From positions 56,583 to 120,582 of the forward strand of contig MWBW01000001.1 of NCBI GenBank assembly GCA_002069725.1: a stretch of 64,000 nt of DNA, in the 5' to 3' direction. The notes beneath the pieces were generated by a model. That model did no database searches. It saw only the letters and a list, made by a program, of their open reading frames with translations, and was not told the DNA's origin. Below, one piece after another: positions 4,851 to 39,987 of the stretch. How positions within the stretch are numbered: the stretch's first letter is position 1; each line of letters opens with the position of its first letter. A program made the translations under genes and the position numbers. Origin of the DNA: Firmicutes bacterium ADurb.Bin248 (GTDB lineage Bacteria > Bacillota > Clostridia > Christensenellales > CAG-138).

Positions 4851-5981
4851 ATGGACGGCGTTTCCCCTTCCGCCCGCACATGGGCGGAAATCGATCTCGC
4901 AAACCTGCTGCACAATTTCAACCTCGCCAAAGCCTGCGGCAAAAAGGTCATGTGCGTCATCAAGGCGGACGCATACGGCCACGGCGCGGTGCGCTGCGGG
5001 CGCTATCTCGAGGATCACGGCGCGGACGCGTTCGCGGTCGCCTGCCTCGCGGAGGCCGCGGAGCTTCGGGAGGGCGGCATCACGAGGCCCGTACTCATAC
5101 TCGGCTACACCGCCGCGCAATACGCGGGGCTCCTCGCGCGATACAACGTCGCGCAGACGCTTGTCGACGAGAGCCACGCCCTCGAGATGAGCGGGGCTGC
5201 GTCGGCCGCCGGCGTCGCGCTCGAATGCCATATCAAGCTCGATACCGGCATGAGCCGCGCGGGGCTGTACGCCCAGGGCAAAGAGGCCGCGTTTGAGGCG
5301 GCGCTTGCCGCGGAGCGCATGATGAAGCTGCCCGGCATCCGCGTGACGGGCATGTATACCCATTTCGCCGTCGCGGACACGCCGGGCGAGGACGATTACA
5401 CGGCCTGGCAGCTCGAAAACTATAACATCGTGCTCGACGAGCTGACGAAAAAGGGCCTTCGCCCCGAAACCTGCCACACGTCGAACAGCGCGTGCATCAT
5501 GAGCCACCCGGAAACCGTCGTCGACATGGTGCGCGAGGGCATCATGCTCTACGGGCTGTATCCCGACAGCGCGCCGCAAGAGGGGCCGCTAAAGTCCGTT
5601 ATGACGCTCAAAACCCGCGTATCGCAGGTGAAGGATTTCCCCGCGGGCACGACCGTCAGCTACGGCCGCACGTTCAGGGGAGGCGGGCCGTTTACAACCG
5701 CCGTGCTGCTCGCGGGCTACGCGGACGGGTATCCGCGGCGGCTCTCGAACAGCGCGAGCGTTGTCATCAACGGCAAAAAATACCCGCAGGCCGGGCGCAT
5801 CTGCATGGATATGTCGATGGCGCTTGTGGATAAAAGCGAGGTCGCGCGCGGCGACGCGGCGACGCTCATCGGCGGGGACTCGATTAGTTGGGAGCAGGCC
5901 GCGCAAATCGTCGGCACGATCAACTACGAACTGACCTGCCTTGTGACCGCGCGCGCCGAGCGGGTCTACGTCAACGGCTGA
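4851..5981 (+). CDS. alr: Alanine racemase
   Basis: VIKADAYGHGA PLP-lysine motif; 376 aa of typical Alr length and C-terminal beta domain. Confidence 0.9.
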   Translation: MDGVSPSARTWAEIDLANLLHNFNLAKACGKKVMCVIKADAYGHGAVRCGRYLEDHGADAFAVACLAEAAELREGGITRPVLILGYTAAQYAGLLARYNVAQTLVDESHALEMSGAASAAGVALECHIKLDTGMSRAGLYAQGKEAAFEAALAAERMMKLPGIRVTGMYTHFAVADTPGEDDYTAWQLENYNIVLDELTKKGLRPETCHTSNSACIMSHPETVVDMVREGIMLYGLYPDSAPQEGPLKSVMTLKTRVSQVKDFPAGTTVSYGRTFRGGGPFTTAVLLAGYADGYPRRLSNSASVVINGKKYPQAGRICMDMSMALVDKSEVARGDAATLIGGDSISWEQAAQIVGTINYELTCLVTARAERVYVNG

Positions 5982-6961: not shown

Positions 6962-7768
6962 ATGAAAAAGCTGTTCATCAGCGCGGACATCGAGGGCACT
7001 TCCGGCATCGTCCACTGGAACGAGACGGATAAGGACAAGCCCCACGACTACGACTATTTTGCGGACCAGATGACGCGCGAAGTCGCGGCCGCCTGCGAGG
7101 GCGCGTTCGCCGCGGGCGCCGTGGAGGTGCTCGTCAAGGACGCGCACGACTCCGGGCGGAACATCGACCCCAGGAGGCTGCCCGAGTACGCGCGCGTGTT
7201 TCGCGGCTGGGCAAGGCATCCGTTCTCCATGATGTACGGGCTCGACGAGAGCTTCGACGGCGTCGTGTTCACGGGCTACCACAGCGCCGCGCAGATGAAC
7301 GGCAACCCGCTCTCCCACACGATGAACACGACCAACAACTACGTCAAGCTCAACGGCGAGCTGATGAGCGAGCTGATGCTCAACTGCCTCACGGCGAGCT
7401 ATGTGGGCGTGCCGGTCTACTGCGCGTGCGGCGACCGCGGCCTTTGCGACTGGCTGCAGAGCGTCAACCCGAACATCGCGGTCGTGGCGGTTTCCGAGGG
7501 CACGGGCAGCGGGTCGCTGGGCATGCACCCGGACGTCGCCGTGCGCGCCATACGCGAGGCGGTCCAAAGATCGATCGAATCCCGTTCGAAGGAAGAATGC
7601 ATGTTCCCGATGCCGGAGCGCTTCCATCTCGAGATCAACTTCAAGGAGCACATGAAGGCGCTCGGCGGCAGCTTCTATCCCGGCATGAAGCAGACCGGCG
7701 CGCGCGTGGTCGAGTTCGAGACGGACAACTGGTTCGAGGCGCTCAGGATGATGCACTTCGTGCTGTGA
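6962..7768 (+). CDS. dppA: D-aminopeptidase DppA (peptidase M55)
   Basis: MKKLFISADIEGTSGIV... M55 signature. RBS AAGGAGG precedes the ATG at 6962, an internal Met of the track ORF. Confidence 0.85.
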   Translation: MKKLFISADIEGTSGIVHWNETDKDKPHDYDYFADQMTREVAAACEGAFAAGAVEVLVKDAHDSGRNIDPRRLPEYARVFRGWARHPFSMMYGLDESFDGVVFTGYHSAAQMNGNPLSHTMNTTNNYVKLNGELMSELMLNCLTASYVGVPVYCACGDRGLCDWLQSVNPNIAVVAVSEGTGSGSLGMHPDVAVRAIREAVQRSIESRSKEECMFPMPERFHLEINFKEHMKALGGSFYPGMKQTGARVVEFETDNWFEALRMMHFVL

Positions 7769-7773
7769 CGGGA

Positions 7774-7957
7774 CAATTGACAATCATATTTGATTCGTGC
7801 GGTCTTCGCTTGAACGGCGAAGGCCGCTTTCCTTTCGCCGCAAGGTCGGATGGGATACGTCCGCCGTCCGCTTCCGCCGCGGCGGGTTTACGTCGCCGCA
7901 TAAGCGGGCTTCCGCTTTTAAAACGGAAGCCGCCCGAATTTTTACGATTGTCAATTG
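7774..7957. repeat. Family-A heptamer heads in inverted orientation flanking about 160 bp (MITE-like unit)
   Basis: CAATTGACAATC at 7774-7785 and GATTGTCAATTG at 7946-7957 are reverse complements. The interior has hairpin GCTTCCGCTTTTAAAACGGAAGC. Confidence 0.6.
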
Positions 7958-8109
7958 CCCTGCGGCGGGCATTTCTCCTTGCCGGATTTGGCCTTGCCCT
8001 GTATCTCGGGCACGGGCTCGTCGATGTTCTTGTTGAAATGCTGCTTGCGGTCGCTTTGCGTCCCGTGCGGCTCGCTCGGGTCGGGCCGCCTCATGCCGGG
8101 CTTTGGCAT
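7951..8109 (-). CDS. Small basic hydrophilic protein (52 aa), composition like minor SASPs
   Basis: MPKPGMRRPDPSEPHGTQSDRKQHFNKNIDEPVPEIQGKAKSGKEKCPPQGN. RBS GAGGAGG lies 5 nt upstream. Below the track size cut-off. The stop codon lies inside a family-A head. Confidence 0.5.
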   Translation of the reverse strand: MPKPGMRRPDPSEPHGTQSDRKQHFNKNIDEPVPEIQGKAKSGKEKCPPQGN

Positions 8110-8119
8110 ACTGTCCTCC

Positions 8120-8254
8120 TCATACGTCGTTGTTTTTTATGGAGTGCTTTTTGGCGTTCCGGTTCTGGTTCTGGTTTTCGCGGCCGATGGGCGTCTGGCC
8201 GCGGCACTTCTCCATGCTTTTCTTCTTGTTGTCGATCTGGCTGTCCTTGGGCAA
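8120..8254 (-). CDS. Small basic hydrophilic protein (44 aa, TTG start)
   Basis: (M)PKDSQIDNKKKSMEKCRGQTPIGRENQNQNRNAKKHSIKNNDV. RBS GGAGGTGA lies upstream. Its stop overlaps the RBS of the next small gene. Confidence 0.4.
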   Translation of the reverse strand: MPKDSQIDNKKKSMEKCRGQTPIGRENQNQNRNAKKHSIKNNDV

Positions 8255-8697
8255 GCGCGTCACCTCCTTCGGCTTAGTATCCGCGCGAACGCGCCCGGTA
8301 TCCGCGCTTCCGCAGGAAAAGACCGGCGAACGCGCATCACGTCCGCGGCGGCGGTTCGGCCGAACGGTTTGCGAACGGCGCGCCGGATATTGTTGTCGAA
8401 TTCTGTATGGTTTTAATCCTGCGGAGCGCGGAGAACGTCAAAAAGAGCATCCTTGAGCAAAAATTAGGTAAAAAAATCAAATATCATGAAAAATAACGAA
8501 AAAATCCTGTTAAAAAAACTATCATTTTTTGGAGAATATGGTATTATATAGGACGCCCGTAGTTTTTTGCGGCCCTTGGACCGGCGGATTTTCCGAGCAT
8601 GCAATTCGGGTTCGCGGCGCGGCGTCGTTTTTTAAGCCGGATAAGCGCCGAATATAAAAACGCGCTTGATCGATACATCAACCTTTGGAGGTGCGGT

Positions 8698-13340: not shown

Positions 13341-13478
13341 AAGAGCGCTTCGGGGGTGGTGCGATTCCACACCGGCGGTGATGCGGCGTATGCCGACGAG
13401 CCCGCGAACCGGCCATGCGGCCGGCCGAGCCGGTGAGATCCCGGAGCCGACGGTACAGTCCGGATGGGAGAAGCGGGC
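13341..13478 (+). promoter_or_regulatory. FMN riboswitch (RFN element)
   Basis: CTTCGGGGGTGGTGCGATTCCACACCGGCGGT...GAGCCCGCGA...GCCGACGGTACAGTCCGGATGGGAGAAG matches conserved RFN core blocks. Lies upstream of an ECF riboflavin S-component. Confidence 0.85.
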
Positions 13479-13487
13479 TTTTTGCTG

Positions 13488-20176: not shown

Positions 20177-20369
20177 GATTGTCAATGATCAATTGTCAAT
20201 TGTCAATTACCCCGTCCCCCGCCCGCAGGCGGGCGTTCCCTAGATTGTCAATTGTCAATTATCAATTATCCCGTCCCCGCCCGCAGGCGGACGTTCCCTT
20301 GATTGTCAATTGTCAATTATTCCGTCCCCGCTCGCAGGCGGACGTTCCCTAGATTGTCAATTGTCAATC
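20177..20369 (-). repeat. Family-A array: 3 full units plus a terminal head (periods 66, 58, 51 bp)
   Basis: GATTGTCAAT(T/G)...(heptamers) + CCGTCCCCGCCCGCAGGCGG(G/A)CGTTCCC, repeated at 20177, 20243 and 20301. The final head at 20352-20369 contains the stop of the upstream gene. Confidence 0.85.
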
Positions 20370-21727
20370 ACCCCAAGGCTTTTGCGCAGCAGCTTCAGCG
20401 CCGCCTCCGGATAATGCTTTGAGAGCACGCCGAGCGAGGCCATGATGTAATCGTCGTCAAACAGAAGCCGCGCTTCGCCGGGCTTGGGGTAGAGCATCAT
20501 GCCCGCGGAGTTGCAGTCCGCGATGGCGCGAAGGAGCGTTTCCCTGTGGGGCAGCCTTGTGAGCGCGCCGCCCGTGCCCACGATCGTTCGCACGGCGCTC
20601 AGATCCTTGCCCTCGGCGACGGTCTTTCGGCCCGACGGCGTGTAGATGTAGCGAAGCGCGCCCGCGTGGCGCTCCACGGCGCGGATGCCCGCCTCGCGGC
20701 AGAGGCGCGAGGCCAGCAAAAACTGTTCCGGCGTCTCCGGGATGGGCTTATAATCGGCCAGGACGGCCGCGACATCGAGCCTGAGCTCGTTTTTGAGCGC
20801 GTCGAGGCCGATCATGTCCACAACGTTCCTGGCGTTGATGTAAAGGCCGAGATCGCCCTCGACCGTGCGCTTGGCGAACGGCTCGGGATTGGTCAGAAGG
20901 ATCGCGATCTCCTCGGAGCCGCCGGTCACGCTGTGCACGTCCGTCGTCGCGCCGCCGATGTCTATGGCCACGAGATCGCCTATGTCGTCATAAAGAAGCT
21001 GAGCCGCCTCCATGACCGCGCCGGGCGTGGGGATGATGCTGCCCGTGACCATATCGCGGATGTGCTCCATGCCGGGCGCTTTGACGATGTGCTCCTCAAA
21101 AACCGCGTGTATGATTTTGCGCGCGGGCTCGATGTTCAGCTTATCGAGCCGGGGATAGACGTTTTCCACGACGCTGCACGGGATGCCCGCCGCGTCGAAT
21201 ATCTCCCGCACGGCGCGCTGGTTCTGGATGTTCCCCGCGTAGATGACCGGCGCGCGGACGCCGGAACCGGCCAAACGCTTCGCGTTGTAGAGCGCGGTTT
21301 CGCGCTCGCCGTAATCCGTGCCGCCCGCGAGGAGGATAAGGTTGGGCTTGACCGCGTCGATGTCCGCGAGGTCGTAATCGGTGAGCCTGCCCGCCGTCGC
21401 GAGCTTGATGATGGCGCCCGCGCCGAGCGCGGCGGCTTCTGCGGCACGGACGGTCATGTCGTACACGAGGCCGTGCACGCACATACGAAGGCCGCCCGCG
21501 GCGGAGCTGGTCGCGAGCATCTCGCCGAAGGTGATCCCGTCGCAGCCCATGCTGCGCGAAAGACCGTCTATCGCGCCCTGAAGGCCCGCGCGCACATCCC
21601 CCGCGAGCACGGAGGTCGGCGCGCAGCCCTGTCCCAAAAAGCGCGGCTCGCCCTCGTGAACGCCCGAGAAGGCGTTCACGAGGGTCGTGGTCGAGCCGAT
21701 TTCCGCTACGAGTACGTCGATATGCAT
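20357..21727 (-). CDS. MutL(GlmL)-like protein, putative aminomutase reactivase
   Basis: Starts MHIDVLVAEIGSTTT (ASKHA-like ATPase N-terminus). Position downstream of oraE matches ornithine clusters. C-terminus ...GVIDN-stop is encoded by repeat sequence. Confidence 0.7.
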   Translation of the reverse strand: MHIDVLVAEIGSTTTLVNAFSGVHEGEPRFLGQGCAPTSVLAGDVRAGLQGAIDGLSRSMGCDGITFGEMLATSSAAGGLRMCVHGLVYDMTVRAAEAAALGAGAIIKLATAGRLTDYDLADIDAVKPNLILLAGGTDYGERETALYNAKRLAGSGVRAPVIYAGNIQNQRAVREIFDAAGIPCSVVENVYPRLDKLNIEPARKIIHAVFEEHIVKAPGMEHIRDMVTGSIIPTPGAVMEAAQLLYDDIGDLVAIDIGGATTDVHSVTGGSEEIAILLTNPEPFAKRTVEGDLGLYINARNVVDMIGLDALKNELRLDVAAVLADYKPIPETPEQFLLASRLCREAGIRAVERHAGALRYIYTPSGRKTVAEGKDLSAVRTIVGTGGALTRLPHRETLLRAIADCNSAGMMLYPKPGEARLLFDDDYIMASLGVLSKHYPEAALKLLRKSLGVIDN

Positions 21728-26244: not shown

Positions 26245-27291
26245 TTATTTTTCGATCATGTCCCTCATGTCGCCCATGATGGCGTGGGGGACGGGCAGGT
26301 CGAGCATGGTCTTGAGGCCGGGCCTCGCGTTGATGACGTGCGGGATCATATTGACGCACATGGCGATGGTGCCTATGCCGCCGTCCACCTCGGGGGTGTT
26401 GGCCATGTTGATGTTCGGCGTGCCCTTGATGACGATGTAGTCGCCGGTCTGGGTGCCTTCCATCTCGGGCTCGATCTGCTGGGGATGGATGAGGTCGATG
26501 CGCTGCACGCCGTCCACATAGGCCTGCGCGGTCATGTTGACGCCGGCCACGTCGCCGGCCTTGGCGAAGCCGTAGGGGGACTTGCGATCCACGCCCGTCA
26601 CGATGGGCTTCATCTGCTGCTCGAATTTGTCGATCTTCCAGCCCATGGCTTCGGCGATCATGCCCGCGGACTCCGCGAAGCCCACGTGGCCCGAGAGATG
26701 GCCGTTCTTGCAGCCTTCCTCGAACTCTTTCACCGTGATGCCGATGCCCTGCTCCTTCATGACCAGCGGGCCGAAGGGCGAGAGGGAGTTGACGCGCTTG
26801 CACATCACGCTCTCGACGTCCGTCATGCAGCCGGAGAAGCAGATCGCCAAAAGATCCATCATCAGGCCGGGGTTGATGCCCGTGCCGAGCACCGTGACGC
26901 CGTTTTCCTTGGCGAGCCGGTCCATCTCGGCAGCGAGCTCGGGCTCCTGCGCCTTGGGGTAGCTCATCTCCTCCGCGATGGAGACGACGTTGATGCCCTG
27001 CTCGACGGCGTACTTGATCTTGGGGAACACGTCGCGCGTGAACGAGTCGGTCGCGATCACGCAGATGTCGGCCGCGCCCTTGTAAACGACCTTGGTGATG
27101 TCGGTGTGGATGAGCGCCTCGGGACGATCTCCGCGCTCGATGCCCAGCACCTCGTACATGCTCTTGCCCTCGTACTTGGGGTTCTGACGGCATACGCCCG
27201 TGATTTCGACGCCCTTTTTGCGGCAGAGCACCTCGGCGATGCCGCTGCCCATGGCCCCGAAGCCCCACATAGCTACCCTGATGTTGTTCAT
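26245..27291 (-). CDS. ord: 2,4-diaminopentanoate dehydrogenase
   Basis: N-terminal Rossmann motif (VAMWGFGAMGSG), dihydrodipicolinate-reductase-like fold, 348 aa. First gene of the cluster. RBS GGAGGAAG. Confidence 0.85.
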   Translation of the reverse strand: MNNIRVAMWGFGAMGSGIAEVLCRKKGVEITGVCRQNPKYEGKSMYEVLGIERGDRPEALIHTDITKVVYKGAADICVIATDSFTRDVFPKIKYAVEQGINVVSIAEEMSYPKAQEPELAAEMDRLAKENGVTVLGTGINPGLMMDLLAICFSGCMTDVESVMCKRVNSLSPFGPLVMKEQGIGITVKEFEEGCKNGHLSGHVGFAESAGMIAEAMGWKIDKFEQQMKPIVTGVDRKSPYGFAKAGDVAGVNMTAQAYVDGVQRIDLIHPQQIEPEMEGTQTGDYIVIKGTPNINMANTPEVDGGIGTIAMCVNMIPHVINARPGLKTMLDLPVPHAIMGDMRDMIEK

Positions 27292-27494
27292 GTTTCTTCC
27301 TCCGTCATGATGATGATTCTTATTGATTTTGCAGCGCCCTCATTATAACACGGCTACTGCATAAGGTGAACCGATTCATTGAAAATATGCATTATCGACA
27401 TTTCAACTATCGATACTTAGTGTACTATATGCCCGCGGAATCCGCAAGGGTCAAACGCATGTAAAACTTAAGCAAACGGCGTGGCGGACGAGGG

Positions 27495-27550
27495 CAATTG
27501 ACAATGGACAATGGACGATTGACAATCGGGAACGCCGCCTGCGGGCGGGG
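27495..27550 (+). repeat. Family-A repeat (variant head + GC hairpin)
   Basis: CAATTGACAATGGACAATGGACGATTGACAATC + GGGAACGCCGCCTGCGGGCGGGG. Confidence 0.75.
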
Positions 27551-27694
27551 GTTTCCCGTTCCTTTTATGCGCCGGGGACGGTTCCGCGTTTTTCCGGCGT
27601 CCCTGTTCCGGCGAAGCGGCATCTTCATCCTTTGCCCTGCTCATCCTCACGCGTGCAAAACCGTCCCCCGAGCGGCGAAGAACCTTTTGTTCCG

Positions 27695-27980
27695 CTCCGG
27701 GGACGGTTTTCGGTGAAAGAGGGTAGTGAAAGTCAAAGGCGGCCGCTGCCGCTTTTCGGAAGATGACCTGCCGGAAGCTGCCGAGAACCGTCGCCGACGC
27801 CCGAACAAACAGAGTTCCCCGCCCGCAGGCGGCGTTTTATGCTCCGGGGACGGCTCTCAGTAAAAGAGGGTGGTGAAAGTCAAAGGCGGTCGCTGCCGCT
27901 TTTCGGAAAATGACCTGCCGGAAACTGCCGAGAACCGGCGCTCGAAGGAAAAGAGTTCCCCGCCCGCAGGCGGCGTTTCT
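27695..27980 (+). repeat. Tandem duplication, 2 x about 147 bp, each unit ending in a family-A hairpin
   Basis: Units start CTCCGGGGACGG at 27695 and 27842. They share ...GTGAAAGTCAAAGGCGG(C/T)CGCTGCCGCTTTTCGGAA.ATGACCTGCCGGAA.CTGCCGAGAACCG...GTTCCCCGCCCGCAGGCGGCGTT. Confidence 0.8.
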
Positions 27981-28020
27981 TGTCCCCGATTGTCAATTGT
28001 CCATTGTCAATTGTCCATTG
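27955..28020 (-). repeat. Family-A repeat, inverted relative to 27495-27550
   Basis: GTTCCCCGCCCGCAGGCGGCGTT ... GATTGTCAATTGTCCATTGTCAATTGTCCATTG. The head contains the stop codon of the 28007..29374 gene. Confidence 0.75.
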
Positions 28021-29374
28021 CTTTCAGCGCCGCGTTCGTCAGCTGCCGCATCTCCTCGTCGCCGACGGCGTCGGTGCGCCCGGTCAGGAACATCGCGTCC
28101 ACGGCTTGTTTGACGCTGCGCACGACGGGGGAGGTTTTGTCGAGCGAGAGGCCGAAGTGCCGGTTGATCCAGAACGTCACGCCCGCGGCGCCGCTTCGCG
28201 CGTCGACGACGACCTCGTTTTCGCGCCCGAGGAGCGATCGCGTGTCGAATATCGAGTAGATGCGCTCGTCCTTCAGCAGGCCGTCCGCATGGACGCCCGC
28301 GCGCGTCGTGCAGAAACCGTCGCCCACGAAGGGCGTTTGCGGGGGAATGGCGTAGCCGAGCTCGCGCTTGAAGTATTCGGCGATCTTCGTGAGCGCCGGG
28401 AGGTTCATTCCGCCGCTCGCGCCGCGAAGCTGGCAGTATTCCATGACCATCGCCTCGAGCGGCACGTTGCCCGTGCGTTCGCCTATGCCCAGCAGGCAGC
28501 AGTTGACCGCGGCCGCGCCGTAGAGCCACGCGGCGGAGGCGTTGGCCACGCCCATGTGGAAGTCGTTGTGCCCGTGCCACTCGAGCTGCGCGCACGGCAC
28601 GCCCGAAACGGTGCGAAGCGCGTGGAGTATGCCCGGCACGCTCCGGGGCAGCGCCGCGCCCGGATATGGAACGCCGACGCCGAGCGTGTCGCAGCAGCGG
28701 ATTTTGATGGACACGCCGGACTCGCGCGCGAGCTTCATCAGTTCGTCCGCGAAGGGCAGCACGAAGCCCGCGATGTCCGCGCGCGTGACGTCCTCGAGGT
28801 GGCAGCGCGGCCTGATGCCGCGCGCGAGCGCCATCTTGACGACGGAGAGATACTTCTCCATCGCCTGCGCGCGCGTGAGGCGGAGCTTGTGGAAGATGTG
28901 GTAATCCGAGCAGGAGGTCAGTATGCCGGTTTCCGATATGCCCAGATCGCGCACGAGGTCGAAATCCTCCTTCGTCGCGCGAATCCACGAGGTGATCTCA
29001 GGGAAGCGATGGCCCCGCTCGCGGCAGAGAGCCAGCGCGCGCCTGTCCTCGGGCGTATAGACGAAGAATTCACATTGCCGCACGATGCCCTTCGGCCCGC
29101 CCAGCTCGTGCATCAGCTCGTAGAGGCCGCGCACCTGCCCGGCCGTGAACGGCGCGCGCGCCTGCTGCCCGTCGCGAAAGGTCGTGTCGGTGATGAAGAT
29201 CTCCTCCGGCACGCGCATGGGGATTTCCCCCGCGCCGAAAGCGACCCTTGGCACCTCGCGGTAGGGGAAAAGCTCGGGATAGAGGTTGGCCTCGTCCGCG
29301 TCCCGCGCGGCGCGCTCCTTCGCGCGCACATGAAGCAGATTTGTGTCGTCGTCGAAAACAAGCCCGTCCGTCAT
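28007..29374 (-). CDS. HMGL-like family synthase (Re-citrate synthase / homocitrate synthase-like)
   Basis: FITDTTFRDGQQA and HGHNDFHMG motifs of the isopropylmalate/homocitrate synthase family. 455 aa without a LeuA regulatory domain. Confidence 0.65.
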   Translation of the reverse strand: MTDGLVFDDDTNLLHVRAKERAARDADEANLYPELFPYREVPRVAFGAGEIPMRVPEEIFITDTTFRDGQQARAPFTAGQVRGLYELMHELGGPKGIVRQCEFFVYTPEDRRALALCRERGHRFPEITSWIRATKEDFDLVRDLGISETGILTSCSDYHIFHKLRLTRAQAMEKYLSVVKMALARGIRPRCHLEDVTRADIAGFVLPFADELMKLARESGVSIKIRCCDTLGVGVPYPGAALPRSVPGILHALRTVSGVPCAQLEWHGHNDFHMGVANASAAWLYGAAAVNCCLLGIGERTGNVPLEAMVMEYCQLRGASGGMNLPALTKIAEYFKRELGYAIPPQTPFVGDGFCTTRAGVHADGLLKDERIYSIFDTRSLLGRENEVVVDARSGAAGVTFWINRHFGLSLDKTSPVVRSVKQAVDAMFLTGRTDAVGDEEMRQLTNAALKAMDN

Positions 29375-30856: not shown

Positions 30857-31041
30857 CCGTATTAAATAACAACGCGCGGCGCTACTCCACAAAATAGCCC
30901 GCAGACGTTGGAAAAAGGAGGCCGTTCCAACCGCGCGGGCTCGCGGTGCGGCAGTGTGGAGACCTGCCGTAATGCGCGTCGTATCAATTTTGCGCGCGCG
31001 AGGCGTATTCCGCGGAGGCGGGTGCGCCGGAGCCCGGATGT

Positions 31042-32235
<1,194 letters not shown>

Positions 32236-32253: not shown

Positions 32254-32441
32254 CCGGGGATTGTCAAGGGGCCGCGGCCCCTTGACTTTCATTCCGGCTT
32301 TGACGACACGCGCGTCAAAACGGATGAAAGCCGTAGGCGTTCGTACCTTTCACGCTTTGCCGCTCGGAAATACCGCAGTATTTTGGGCAAAGCGTGCAGT
32401 CTAAAAAAAAGCGGCTTTGTCGCTTTTTTGAAAGCGAAGCG
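32254..32441 (+). repeat. Family-B structured repeat, copy 1
   Basis: GGGGATTGTCAAGGGGCCGCGGCCCCTTGAC... Shares four helices with the copies at 48087 and 53238. Lies between the msmX-like stop and a terminator. Confidence 0.75.
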
Positions 32442-34290: not shown

Positions 34291-34348
34291 TTTCGTGCGG
34301 GGACGGATTCCGAGGGCCGCATCCGCCCGCGCTTTGCCGGGAGAAAAC

Positions 34349-39811: not shown

Positions 39812-39987
39812 TTCACCTCCTTGAAAATAAAATCCTTTGCCTAAGACAAAGGATGAAAGGACGCCGTATGCTTGCGTCGCGCTTCACCTCGGCGGGATAT
39901 TGAGCCGCAAAGCGGCACCTGCTGTCTTCGGCCTGCGGTATTTGATTTTCCACGGGGCAGTGTATCACACCGCCCCGCGGTTGTCAA
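39812..39987 (-). promoter_or_regulatory. rplJL promoter plus L10-leader-like attenuator
   Basis: Minus strand: TTGACA (39987-39982), 17-nt spacer, TACACT (39964-39959). The roughly 130-nt leader ends in hairpin ATCCTTTG-N7-CAAAGGAT + TTTTATTTT (39854-39823) just before the RBS. Confidence 0.55.

Follow-up and report, generated by a model that had tools for sequence, protein, structure and literature searches.

The 64 000 nt stretch of DNA analysed here, referred to as the window, comes from contig MWBW01000001.1 of Firmicutes bacterium ADurb.Bin248 (GenBank assembly GCA_002069725.1) and includes an ornithine operon whose first gene, ord, is separated from the HMGL-like gene upstream by an intergenic spacer of 715 bp. 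This spacer is probably a mosaic of small selfish or neutral repeats, comparable to a bacterial interspersed mosaic element (BIME) cluster of Escherichia coli, and not a device specific to ord. Its centre is a copy of a palindromic repeat of approximately 245 bp, here called the core, which lies between two modules of a second repeat type, family A. The core family is low-copy and dispersed, with copies at six or more loci of one uncultured high-GC Clostridia organism, and it is a variant of the repeats known as repetitive extragenic palindromic sequences (REPs), BIMEs and miniature inverted-repeat transposable elements (MITEs). The family, which is defined here by coordinates and an alignment, adds to the poorly charted repeats of uncultured digester Clostridia. 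Nothing was found that points to a function specific to ord or to an RNA gene.

Organization of the ord spacer

The core occupies positions 27559 to 27804 on the plus strand, where a hidden Markov model (HMM) built from six copies scored 239 bits with nhmmer, versus 72 bits in the other orientation. It is an imperfect palindrome with GGGGACGG boxes at 27574-27581 (plus strand), 27661-27668 (minus strand), 27699-27706 (plus strand) and 27786-27800, the fourth of which is degenerate in the window (AACCGTCGCCGACG). As single-stranded DNA the core has a folding energy of -64.9 kcal/mol (z -4.6). The central hairpin (27657 to 27710, on both strands) has the form AAAACCGTCCCC...GGGGACGGTTTT, with 19 nt arms that are 95 % complementary and 16 nt apart. 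An earlier note on this DNA, made from the sequence alone, had described a hairpin with a stem of about 19 bp, and 18 of the 19 positions in the arms at 27657-27675 and 27692-27710 are paired. Folding energies of the hairpin as RNA are -37.8 kcal/mol (plus strand) and -40.2 kcal/mol (minus strand), with z about -4.3, and UUUU follows the stem on both strands, as in an intrinsic two-way terminator. The same note had called the hairpin a bidirectional terminator; the sequence features for this are present in both directions, and the function itself is considered below.

The arms of the core account for most of the remaining structure. The left arm (27531 to 27675, minus strand) is an inverted and diverged (approximately 66 %) copy of a 147 bp unit. 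In unit 1 (27694 to 27840, plus strand), the core's right arm is accompanied by a copy of the family-A GC hairpin that lies internally, at 27817-27836, and unit 2 (27841 to 27981, plus strand; box at 27846-27853, hairpin at 27958-27977) is a local duplicate of the right arm and hairpin. When the region was compared with itself using blastn, as the earlier note had proposed, 27569-27836 matched the reverse complement, 27800-27531, at 66.4 % over 274 nt (E 5e-25). In direct orientation, 27694-27794 matched 27841-27941 at 91 % and 27794-27837 matched 27935-27978 at 89 %; overall, units 1 and 2 are 87-91 % identical. The spacing of the units, 147 and then 141, is due to a 6 nt deletion in unit 2. 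A half-element at 27837-27941 was also detected by nhmmer. The two tandem 147 bp units of the earlier note, each ending in its own hairpin, are therefore real, and the hairpin sequence CCCCGCCCGCAGGCGGCGTT is exact at 27817-27836 and 27958-27977 (both plus strand), but the description was incomplete, as the third, inverted copy at 27531-27675 was overlooked and unit 2 is 141 bp long. Because of this third, older copy to the left of the hairpin, 27492-28020 is one long imperfect palindrome with a doubled right arm, centred on the hairpin with the 19 bp stem. As RNA, the whole of this block folds at -280.8 kcal/mol, versus -204.9 +/- 7.3 kcal/mol for shuffled sequences.

The order of modules in the window is family A (plus), left arm (minus), unit 1 (plus), GC hairpin, unit 2 (plus) and family A (minus), and the two family-A modules are thus convergent and frame the core. 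A composite element or nested insertions had been suggested previously, which is supported by the finding that a dispersed palindromic repeat lies in the middle of the block, between two such modules. The left module (27492 to 27550, plus strand) consists of heptads of the CAATTGA/CAATGGA type (27494-27530) and the GC hairpin AACGCCGCCTGCGGGCGGGG (27531-27550), and is an orphan that is not at a gene end. The right module (27958 to 28020, minus strand) consists of the GC hairpin at 27958-27977 and heptads at 27986-28020. This heptad array starts on coding sequence, and its second CAATTGA heptad provides the TGA stop codon (28009 to 28007) of the HMGL-like gene. The modules had been recognized as mutual reverse complements; over the 59 nt of 27492-27550 and 27958-28016 the complementarity is 81 %, rising to 90 % over the 40 nt of the heptad part. 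The 20-mer CCCCGCCCGCAGGCGGCGTT is also exact at 27531-27550 (minus strand) and, with near matches included, its pattern is found eight times in the window (0.07 expected). The heptad motif has 39 matches in the window, with 0.01 expected.

The block is neither an assembly artefact nor a collapsed tandem. An identical 715 bp spacer is present in 13 contigs from independent NCBI, ENA and JGI assemblies, and no differences are seen in the Logan contigs of separate runs that reach across 27521-28013 (X1 and X3) and 27633-28012 (X14). No runs were found among Nanopore and PacBio libraries. The two-unit form is the common form (at least seven runs and 13 contigs). An 870 bp version of the spacer in GCA_035367135.1 was rejected as a genuine variant, as it consists of a 100-N scaffold gap with a 55 bp overlap at the hairpin, and two contigs of another assembly stop inside the block. 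As the block breaks short-read assemblies in this way (one scaffold gap and two contig ends), it can serve in practice to flag assembly errors and to type strains.

Summed over metagenome contigs, depth relative to the flanks was 10-30x at the left family-A module, approximately 100x at the right module and 2-5x in the hairpin region, where diverged contigs match 27563-27740 and 27648-27715. A joint that skips 437 nt (27549>27987) was found in four runs and was considered as a possible empty site. However, its sides are only 30 nt and it probably derives from other family-A loci, and it was not counted. A further joint (28020>27983), found in RNA runs X26-X28 and X32, represents a palindromic family-A-like element made up of heptads, TTCCGTTCCCCGCCGCAGCGGCCGT and inverted heptads. 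As this element is in metatranscriptome contigs and belongs to another locus, at least some heptad-hairpin modules are transcribed.

A dispersed family of palindromic repeats

Further copies of the core were found by scanning metagenome contigs for the outer 12-mers of the hairpin (AAAACCGTCCCC, gap, GGGGACGGTTTT). This returned 70 loci, most of which are unrelated terminator hairpins of 40-42 nt from gut samples. Nine of the 70 contain hairpins of 54-55 nt; one of them (L056) is the ord locus itself (99.7 % identity), and the others represent five different loci that are 63-87 % identical to the window block over 240-530 nt. The scan required two exact 12-mers, and the resulting copy number is a lower bound. 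The five loci, which bear full-length homologues of the core, lie between genes for an M20 peptidase and an ABC protein (L102, L105), PG_binding_1 and sigF (L055, L107-116), asparaginase and Dabb-uvrB (L049, L121-129), a P-type ATPase and flavodoxin (L094, L131-138), and nrdG and ileS (L093, which is identical to L142, and L143). Whether the 147 bp unit occurs elsewhere had been left as a question in the earlier note, and homologous arms at these five loci show that it is not unique to the ord locus.

To place the loci in metagenome-assembled genomes (MAGs), the proteins of neighbouring genes were looked up as exact matches. The ord, sigF, asparaginase-uvrB and P-type ATPase loci are found together in GCA_022706965.1, the ord, sigF and ATPase loci in GCA_035367135.1, and the ord and ATPase loci in GCA_029553945.1. 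The M20-peptidase and nrdG-ileS copies are in samples that also contain ord contigs. Third-position GC is very high at all of the core loci, as it is in the window.

In the alignment of the six copies, the left end is CCTTTTGAAKCGYYGGGGACGGTTC, followed by the left arm. The centre consists of CACCCTCAYGCGCGC-AAAACCGTCCCC, an inner stem, a GAAGAACCTTTYGTTCC loop and then GGGGACGGTTTT-CGGTGCCGGAGGGTGATG, and the right arm, which includes an invariant GGAAGATGAC, ends in CCGAGAACCGTCCCCGACGATTCAAAAGG. The four GGGGACGG boxes form two nested inverted pairs, and the tetranucleotide before the boxes varies (CGTC, CGTT or CGCC). All six copies score 226-244 bits in one orientation and 72-83 bits in the other with the six-copy HMM, and the core is therefore a palindrome with distinguishable arms, that is, with polarity. 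Identity among the copies is 55-89 %, most of them are fixed across strains, and their orientation relative to the neighbouring genes varies among loci. Each adjoins at least one gene 3' end; the neighbouring genes are convergent at three loci and lie on one strand at the other three. Protein coding was considered and rejected, because several single-nucleotide indels among the six copies break any frame and exclude a conserved one.

A mosaic comparable to that at ord is present at the M20-peptidase locus (L102), where an extra arm lies on the opposite side of the core and is 89 % identical to its own neighbour. In a pairwise comparison of right arms, unit 2 of the ord locus was 88.4 % identical to unit 1 versus 55-81 % to the arms at other loci. 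Both extra arms begin at a GGGGACGG box and each has an adjoining GC hairpin of the family-A type. As the extra arms are closest to their own neighbours, they arose in place and independently at the two loci. The possibility that unit 2 is an independently inserted mini-element was rejected because, despite a start (TTTTATGC) that resembles the left terminal inverted repeat, it is closest to the adjoining unit 1. One strain variant (contig L005) lacks exactly 27841-27981 (141 bp; junction TTTTATG|TCCCCG) and otherwise differs by a few SNPs. The remaining unit shares 97.5 % identity with unit 1, from which it follows that the duplication is much older than the strain split and that the copy number is polymorphic. 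At nrdG-ileS, a core-bearing segment of 303 bp in L142 and L143 corresponds to 10 bp in five other contigs, and the flanks are 99 % identical. As the stretch between these flanks is only approximately 77 % identical, the two forms are diverged haplotypes and not the product of a clean insertion.

The GGGGACGG box is found 15 times in the window, mostly in repeats, with 3.35 expected. Some copies (20212-20329) border the GC hairpins of a family-A array at 20178-20370, and another (34299-34306) forms the left arm of a hairpin at 34293-34330; the box is therefore common to several repeat families. In the subfamily made up of the window and L102 copies, the right arm also has TGAAAGTCAA and a GC hairpin in common with the first hairpin of a further repeat, family B (27726-27760 compared with 32254-32290). 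The other core copies differ at this patch, which may be a small recombined segment or due to chance. A relationship of the core to family B (32254-32441) was rejected, the 10 nt TGAAAGTCAA match being all that they have in common.

The palindromic family was not found in Rfam, in phage, plasmid or viral collections, or in a limited literature search. In the viral contigs of IMG/VR, a scan for GGGGACGGTTTTCGGTG gave four chance matches, none of which contains the core, and the phage and plasmid collections gave no core match. A degenerate pattern for the body of the element gave eight single matches in representative genomes, near its own chance expectation and mostly in unrelated taxa; the two that were read (L020 and L025) fall within unrelated genes, in their coding sequence. 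The locus in the window was not among the matches and is apparently absent from this collection or masked in it.

Several points weigh against reading the spacer as a mosaic of mobile repeats. The number of copies, at six or more loci, is only a lower bound, and that all six adjoin a gene 3' end has no statistical weight (P about 0.18, our own estimate). The terminator role of the central hairpin is read from its sequence, and RNA contigs from the gene upstream were found in none of four runs. One 151 nt contig, from a library whose designation as RNA is ambiguous, covers 27674-27823, so some transcription of unit 1 is possible. Finally, no target-site duplication was found at the six copies, and neither a transposition event nor a parent element was found. 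The term mobile thus rests on dispersal and on one presence/absence polymorphism inside a diverged haplotype.

Comparison with known repeats and possible means of spread

REPs are defined as short (20-40 bp) imperfect palindromes with an unpaired GTAG or CGTC tag (PMC3733652), and BIME clusters of REPs, associated with REP-associated tyrosine transposases (RAYTs), are known from Enterobacteria and Pseudomonas (PMC2817692, PMC3733652). Inverted REP doublets, named REPINs, are known from Pseudomonas fluorescens (PMC3116915). The ord spacer is most closely analogous to a REPIN or to a REP-containing BIME cluster (PMC2817692, PMC3116915, PMC3733652). As in BIMEs, the units are non-coding, palindromic and at gene ends, they are clustered in alternating orientation at the ord locus with conserved linker motifs, their copy number varies locally, their hairpins resemble terminators, and a RAYT-like gene is present in the lineage. 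However, the unit here is approximately 245 bp long with four boxes and a central hairpin of 54 nt, rather than a 20-40 bp stem-loop. A constant GTAG or CGTC tag is lacking, and the CGTY that precedes the boxes varies. At least six copies are known from the 12-mer scan, compared with tens to hundreds per genome for REPs and BIMEs. The hairpins on either side of the RAYT-like gene (in L139) are of another kind, unlike those of a REPtron, in which the gene is flanked by copies of the repeat.

Like a REPIN, the core has the symmetry of an inverted doublet that folds into a single long hairpin, and no target-site duplication; as is thought for REPINs, the doublet would be the moving unit. The core differs in being two to three times longer, with nested inner and outer box pairs, and in having arms that are only 66 % alike and can be told apart, which gives it polarity. 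A single arm is not a REP stem-loop, the abundance is low, and the cognate RAYT for the core is only a candidate. The bacterial MITEs reviewed in PMC3184786 (Correia elements and ERIC/IRU) resemble the core in length (100-300 bp), in their terminal inverted repeats and in their intergenic location, and both they and the core may act as terminators or insulators. Unlike MITEs, the core has no target-site duplication and is palindromic throughout, and no parent insertion sequence was found, although no genome-wide search for one was made. The heptads of family A resemble the intergenic heptamer direct repeats of the TAACTGA type (PMC4679880), as they are short tandem arrays of 7 nt units that contain a stop codon and are found in intergenic sequence at gene boundaries (27494-27530 and 27986-28020). 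They differ in that the unit is CAATTGA/CAATGGA and is coupled to a GC hairpin, and the heptads here are merely the outer frame of a mosaic.

The core elements probably spread rarely, likely through a hairpin-recognizing enzyme or by recombination, and the GGGGACGG boxes and GC hairpins would be points of slippage or recombination at which local copy-number changes are created. Judged from its sequence features, the central hairpin would probably stop transcription from the HMGL-like gene as well as any antisense transcription, leaving ord under its own promoter. No RNA contigs were found over the whole HMGL-like gene in the first four RNA runs, or over its 3' end, the only part covered, in the second set. 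The RNA evidence consists of assembled contigs, which cannot show the absence of a transcript.

A more specific proposal is that the core is a REPIN-type element, with terminal inverted repeats, that is mobilized by a RAYT of the lineage, in which case the GGGGACGG boxes would be recognition hairpins and the arm duplications by-products of cleavage. We consider this unlikely. A RAYT-like gene is indeed present in strain variants of this organism (L139, positions 4851-5519; also L140, L141, L145 and L146), in the nrdG-ileS spacer and approximately 50 bp from the polymorphic core site. The lack of target-site duplications at the core ends is as seen with Y1 transposition, a box is the starting point of each of the two independent arm duplications, the box is in excess in the window, and RAYT genes with flanking families of long terminal inverted repeats are known (PMC3733652). 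However, the gene is part of an insertion of approximately 800 bp in the core-free haplotype, so that the haplotypes that bear it lack the core at this site. Its flanking hairpins are of the GGGCCGAT...ATCGG..CCTAC type, and the nearest 1 kb is free of GGGGACGG boxes. Neither curated cut-off is reached (66.5 bits and E 2e-18 for NCBIfam REP_Tyr_transpos, cut-off 80; 21.4 bits for Pfam Y1_Tnp, cut-off 23), and close to its 5' end the gene contains an insertion of five tandem 18 nt units (DSISAR x5 in translation). The core copies, at 55-89 % identity, are also old. We note that the insertion with the RAYT-like gene splits a 43-codon open reading frame (ORF) that overlaps the nrdG stop codon.

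An extension of this proposal, which we regard as equally doubtful, is that the GGGGACGG box is a common recognition signal, read by a resident Y1/RAYT-like enzyme, that links the 245 bp core, the GC-hairpin flanks of family A and the GCGGGGACGGAT-type hairpins. If so, the repeats would make up a REPIN-like system of several families in Clostridia. Cleavage at the boxes would then account for both the spread of the elements and the arm duplications, and gain and loss at the population level would still be ongoing, as at nrdG-ileS and unit 2.

It is less probable still that the core is a MITE derived from an insertion sequence with a DDE-type transposase, with terminal inverted repeats that are recognized in trans and a target-site duplication made on insertion. 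The terminal inverted repeats of approximately 25 nt (CCTTTTGAAKCGYYGGGGACGGTTC as the left end, its complement as the right) are conserved in all six copies, as would be seen in a MITE, and the low copy number and intergenic location are in keeping with this. In one MAG, 2 kb separate the sigF copy from a gene for an IS1182-type DDE transposase whose presence is polymorphic. However, direct repeats flank none of the six copies, and a palindrome over the whole length with internal boxes is unlike typical MITEs. In GCA_022706965.1, the IS1182-type transposase gene (L108, positions 5448-5807) is in the place of the GDSL-lipase gene found in other strains (L107).

The pattern of compensatory changes and the discrete transcript that characterize a structured non-coding RNA family were not observed. 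RNAalifold predicted a long hairpin for the six copies, with a covariation term of +2.45, double changes in seven of 67 pairs and most pairs invariant, and Rfam gave no match to the core at E values up to 1. RNA contigs of at least 95 % identity were not found within 27377-27911 in four runs that express ord, or within this interval in three of four further RNA runs, that is, in seven of the eight runs overall. A role of the core or the 147 nt unit as a structured non-coding RNA, or as a leader that regulates ord in cis, is thus very improbable, since the very stable folds, the conserved polarity and the single 151 nt contig in its favour are set against an almost complete lack of covariation, an inconstant orientation to neighbouring genes, the presence of the core beside unrelated genes, and ord RNA contigs that begin downstream of the block.

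The ord control region and other features of the window

The ord promoter and a candidate operator are outside the mosaic, on its ord-proximal side. The promoter (27342 to 27370, minus strand) has a -35 box TTCACC (27370 to 27365), a 17 nt spacer and a TG-extended -10 box TATAAT (27347 to 27342), and a promoter scan gave ten of 12 matches, with the TG. In three metatranscriptomes, the ends of the RNA contigs are at 27320, 27320 and 27318, which is consistent with a start slightly upstream, at approximately 27335 if judged from the position of the -10 box. The inverted repeat TATCGA-N11-TCGATA (27393 to 27415) is a candidate site for an ord regulator. It is retained, with one change in the spacer, in a relative (L033) in which ord is 97 % identical, the upstream gene is different, and the ord spacer is 281 bp long with no patchwork. 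The ord spacers of other relatives are 166-293 bp and are also without the mosaic, which is therefore lineage-specific, at a synteny breakpoint and distal to the promoter. Both the promoter, given as near 27340, and the inverted repeat had been pointed out in the earlier note and are present in the sequence, and its placement of the promoter outside the patchwork is supported by the ends of the RNA contigs and by the inverted repeat in the patchwork-free L033. As ordinary repeat biology explains the 715 bp spacer, there is no need to seek an ornithine-specific control element there, and the parts worth study are the ord promoter and the conserved candidate operator.

The ord gene (26245 to 27291, minus strand) encodes 2,4-diaminopentanoate dehydrogenase (Pfam DAP_DH_C, 1.9e-94) and is followed by ortA, ortB and oraE, which were confirmed by Pfam. 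The HMGL-like gene upstream of the patchwork is at 28007 to 29374 on the minus strand (Pfam HMGL-like, 1.1e-34). The earlier note had called the patchwork the largest non-coding block in the window, but two other gaps, 1617-2540 (924 bp) and 7769-8598 (830 bp), contain no ORF with Pfam support, and either may exceed the ord patchwork as a non-coding block. The second of these bears family-A heads at about 7767-7961. Three known RNA elements are also present in the window, namely an FMN riboswitch at 13342-13479 (86.5 bits) and a ribosomal protein L10 leader at 39817-39949 (56.7 bits), both above the Rfam gathering threshold, and a malK-I RNA (RF03069) at 30868-31047, with 131.6 bits versus a gathering score of 60.3.

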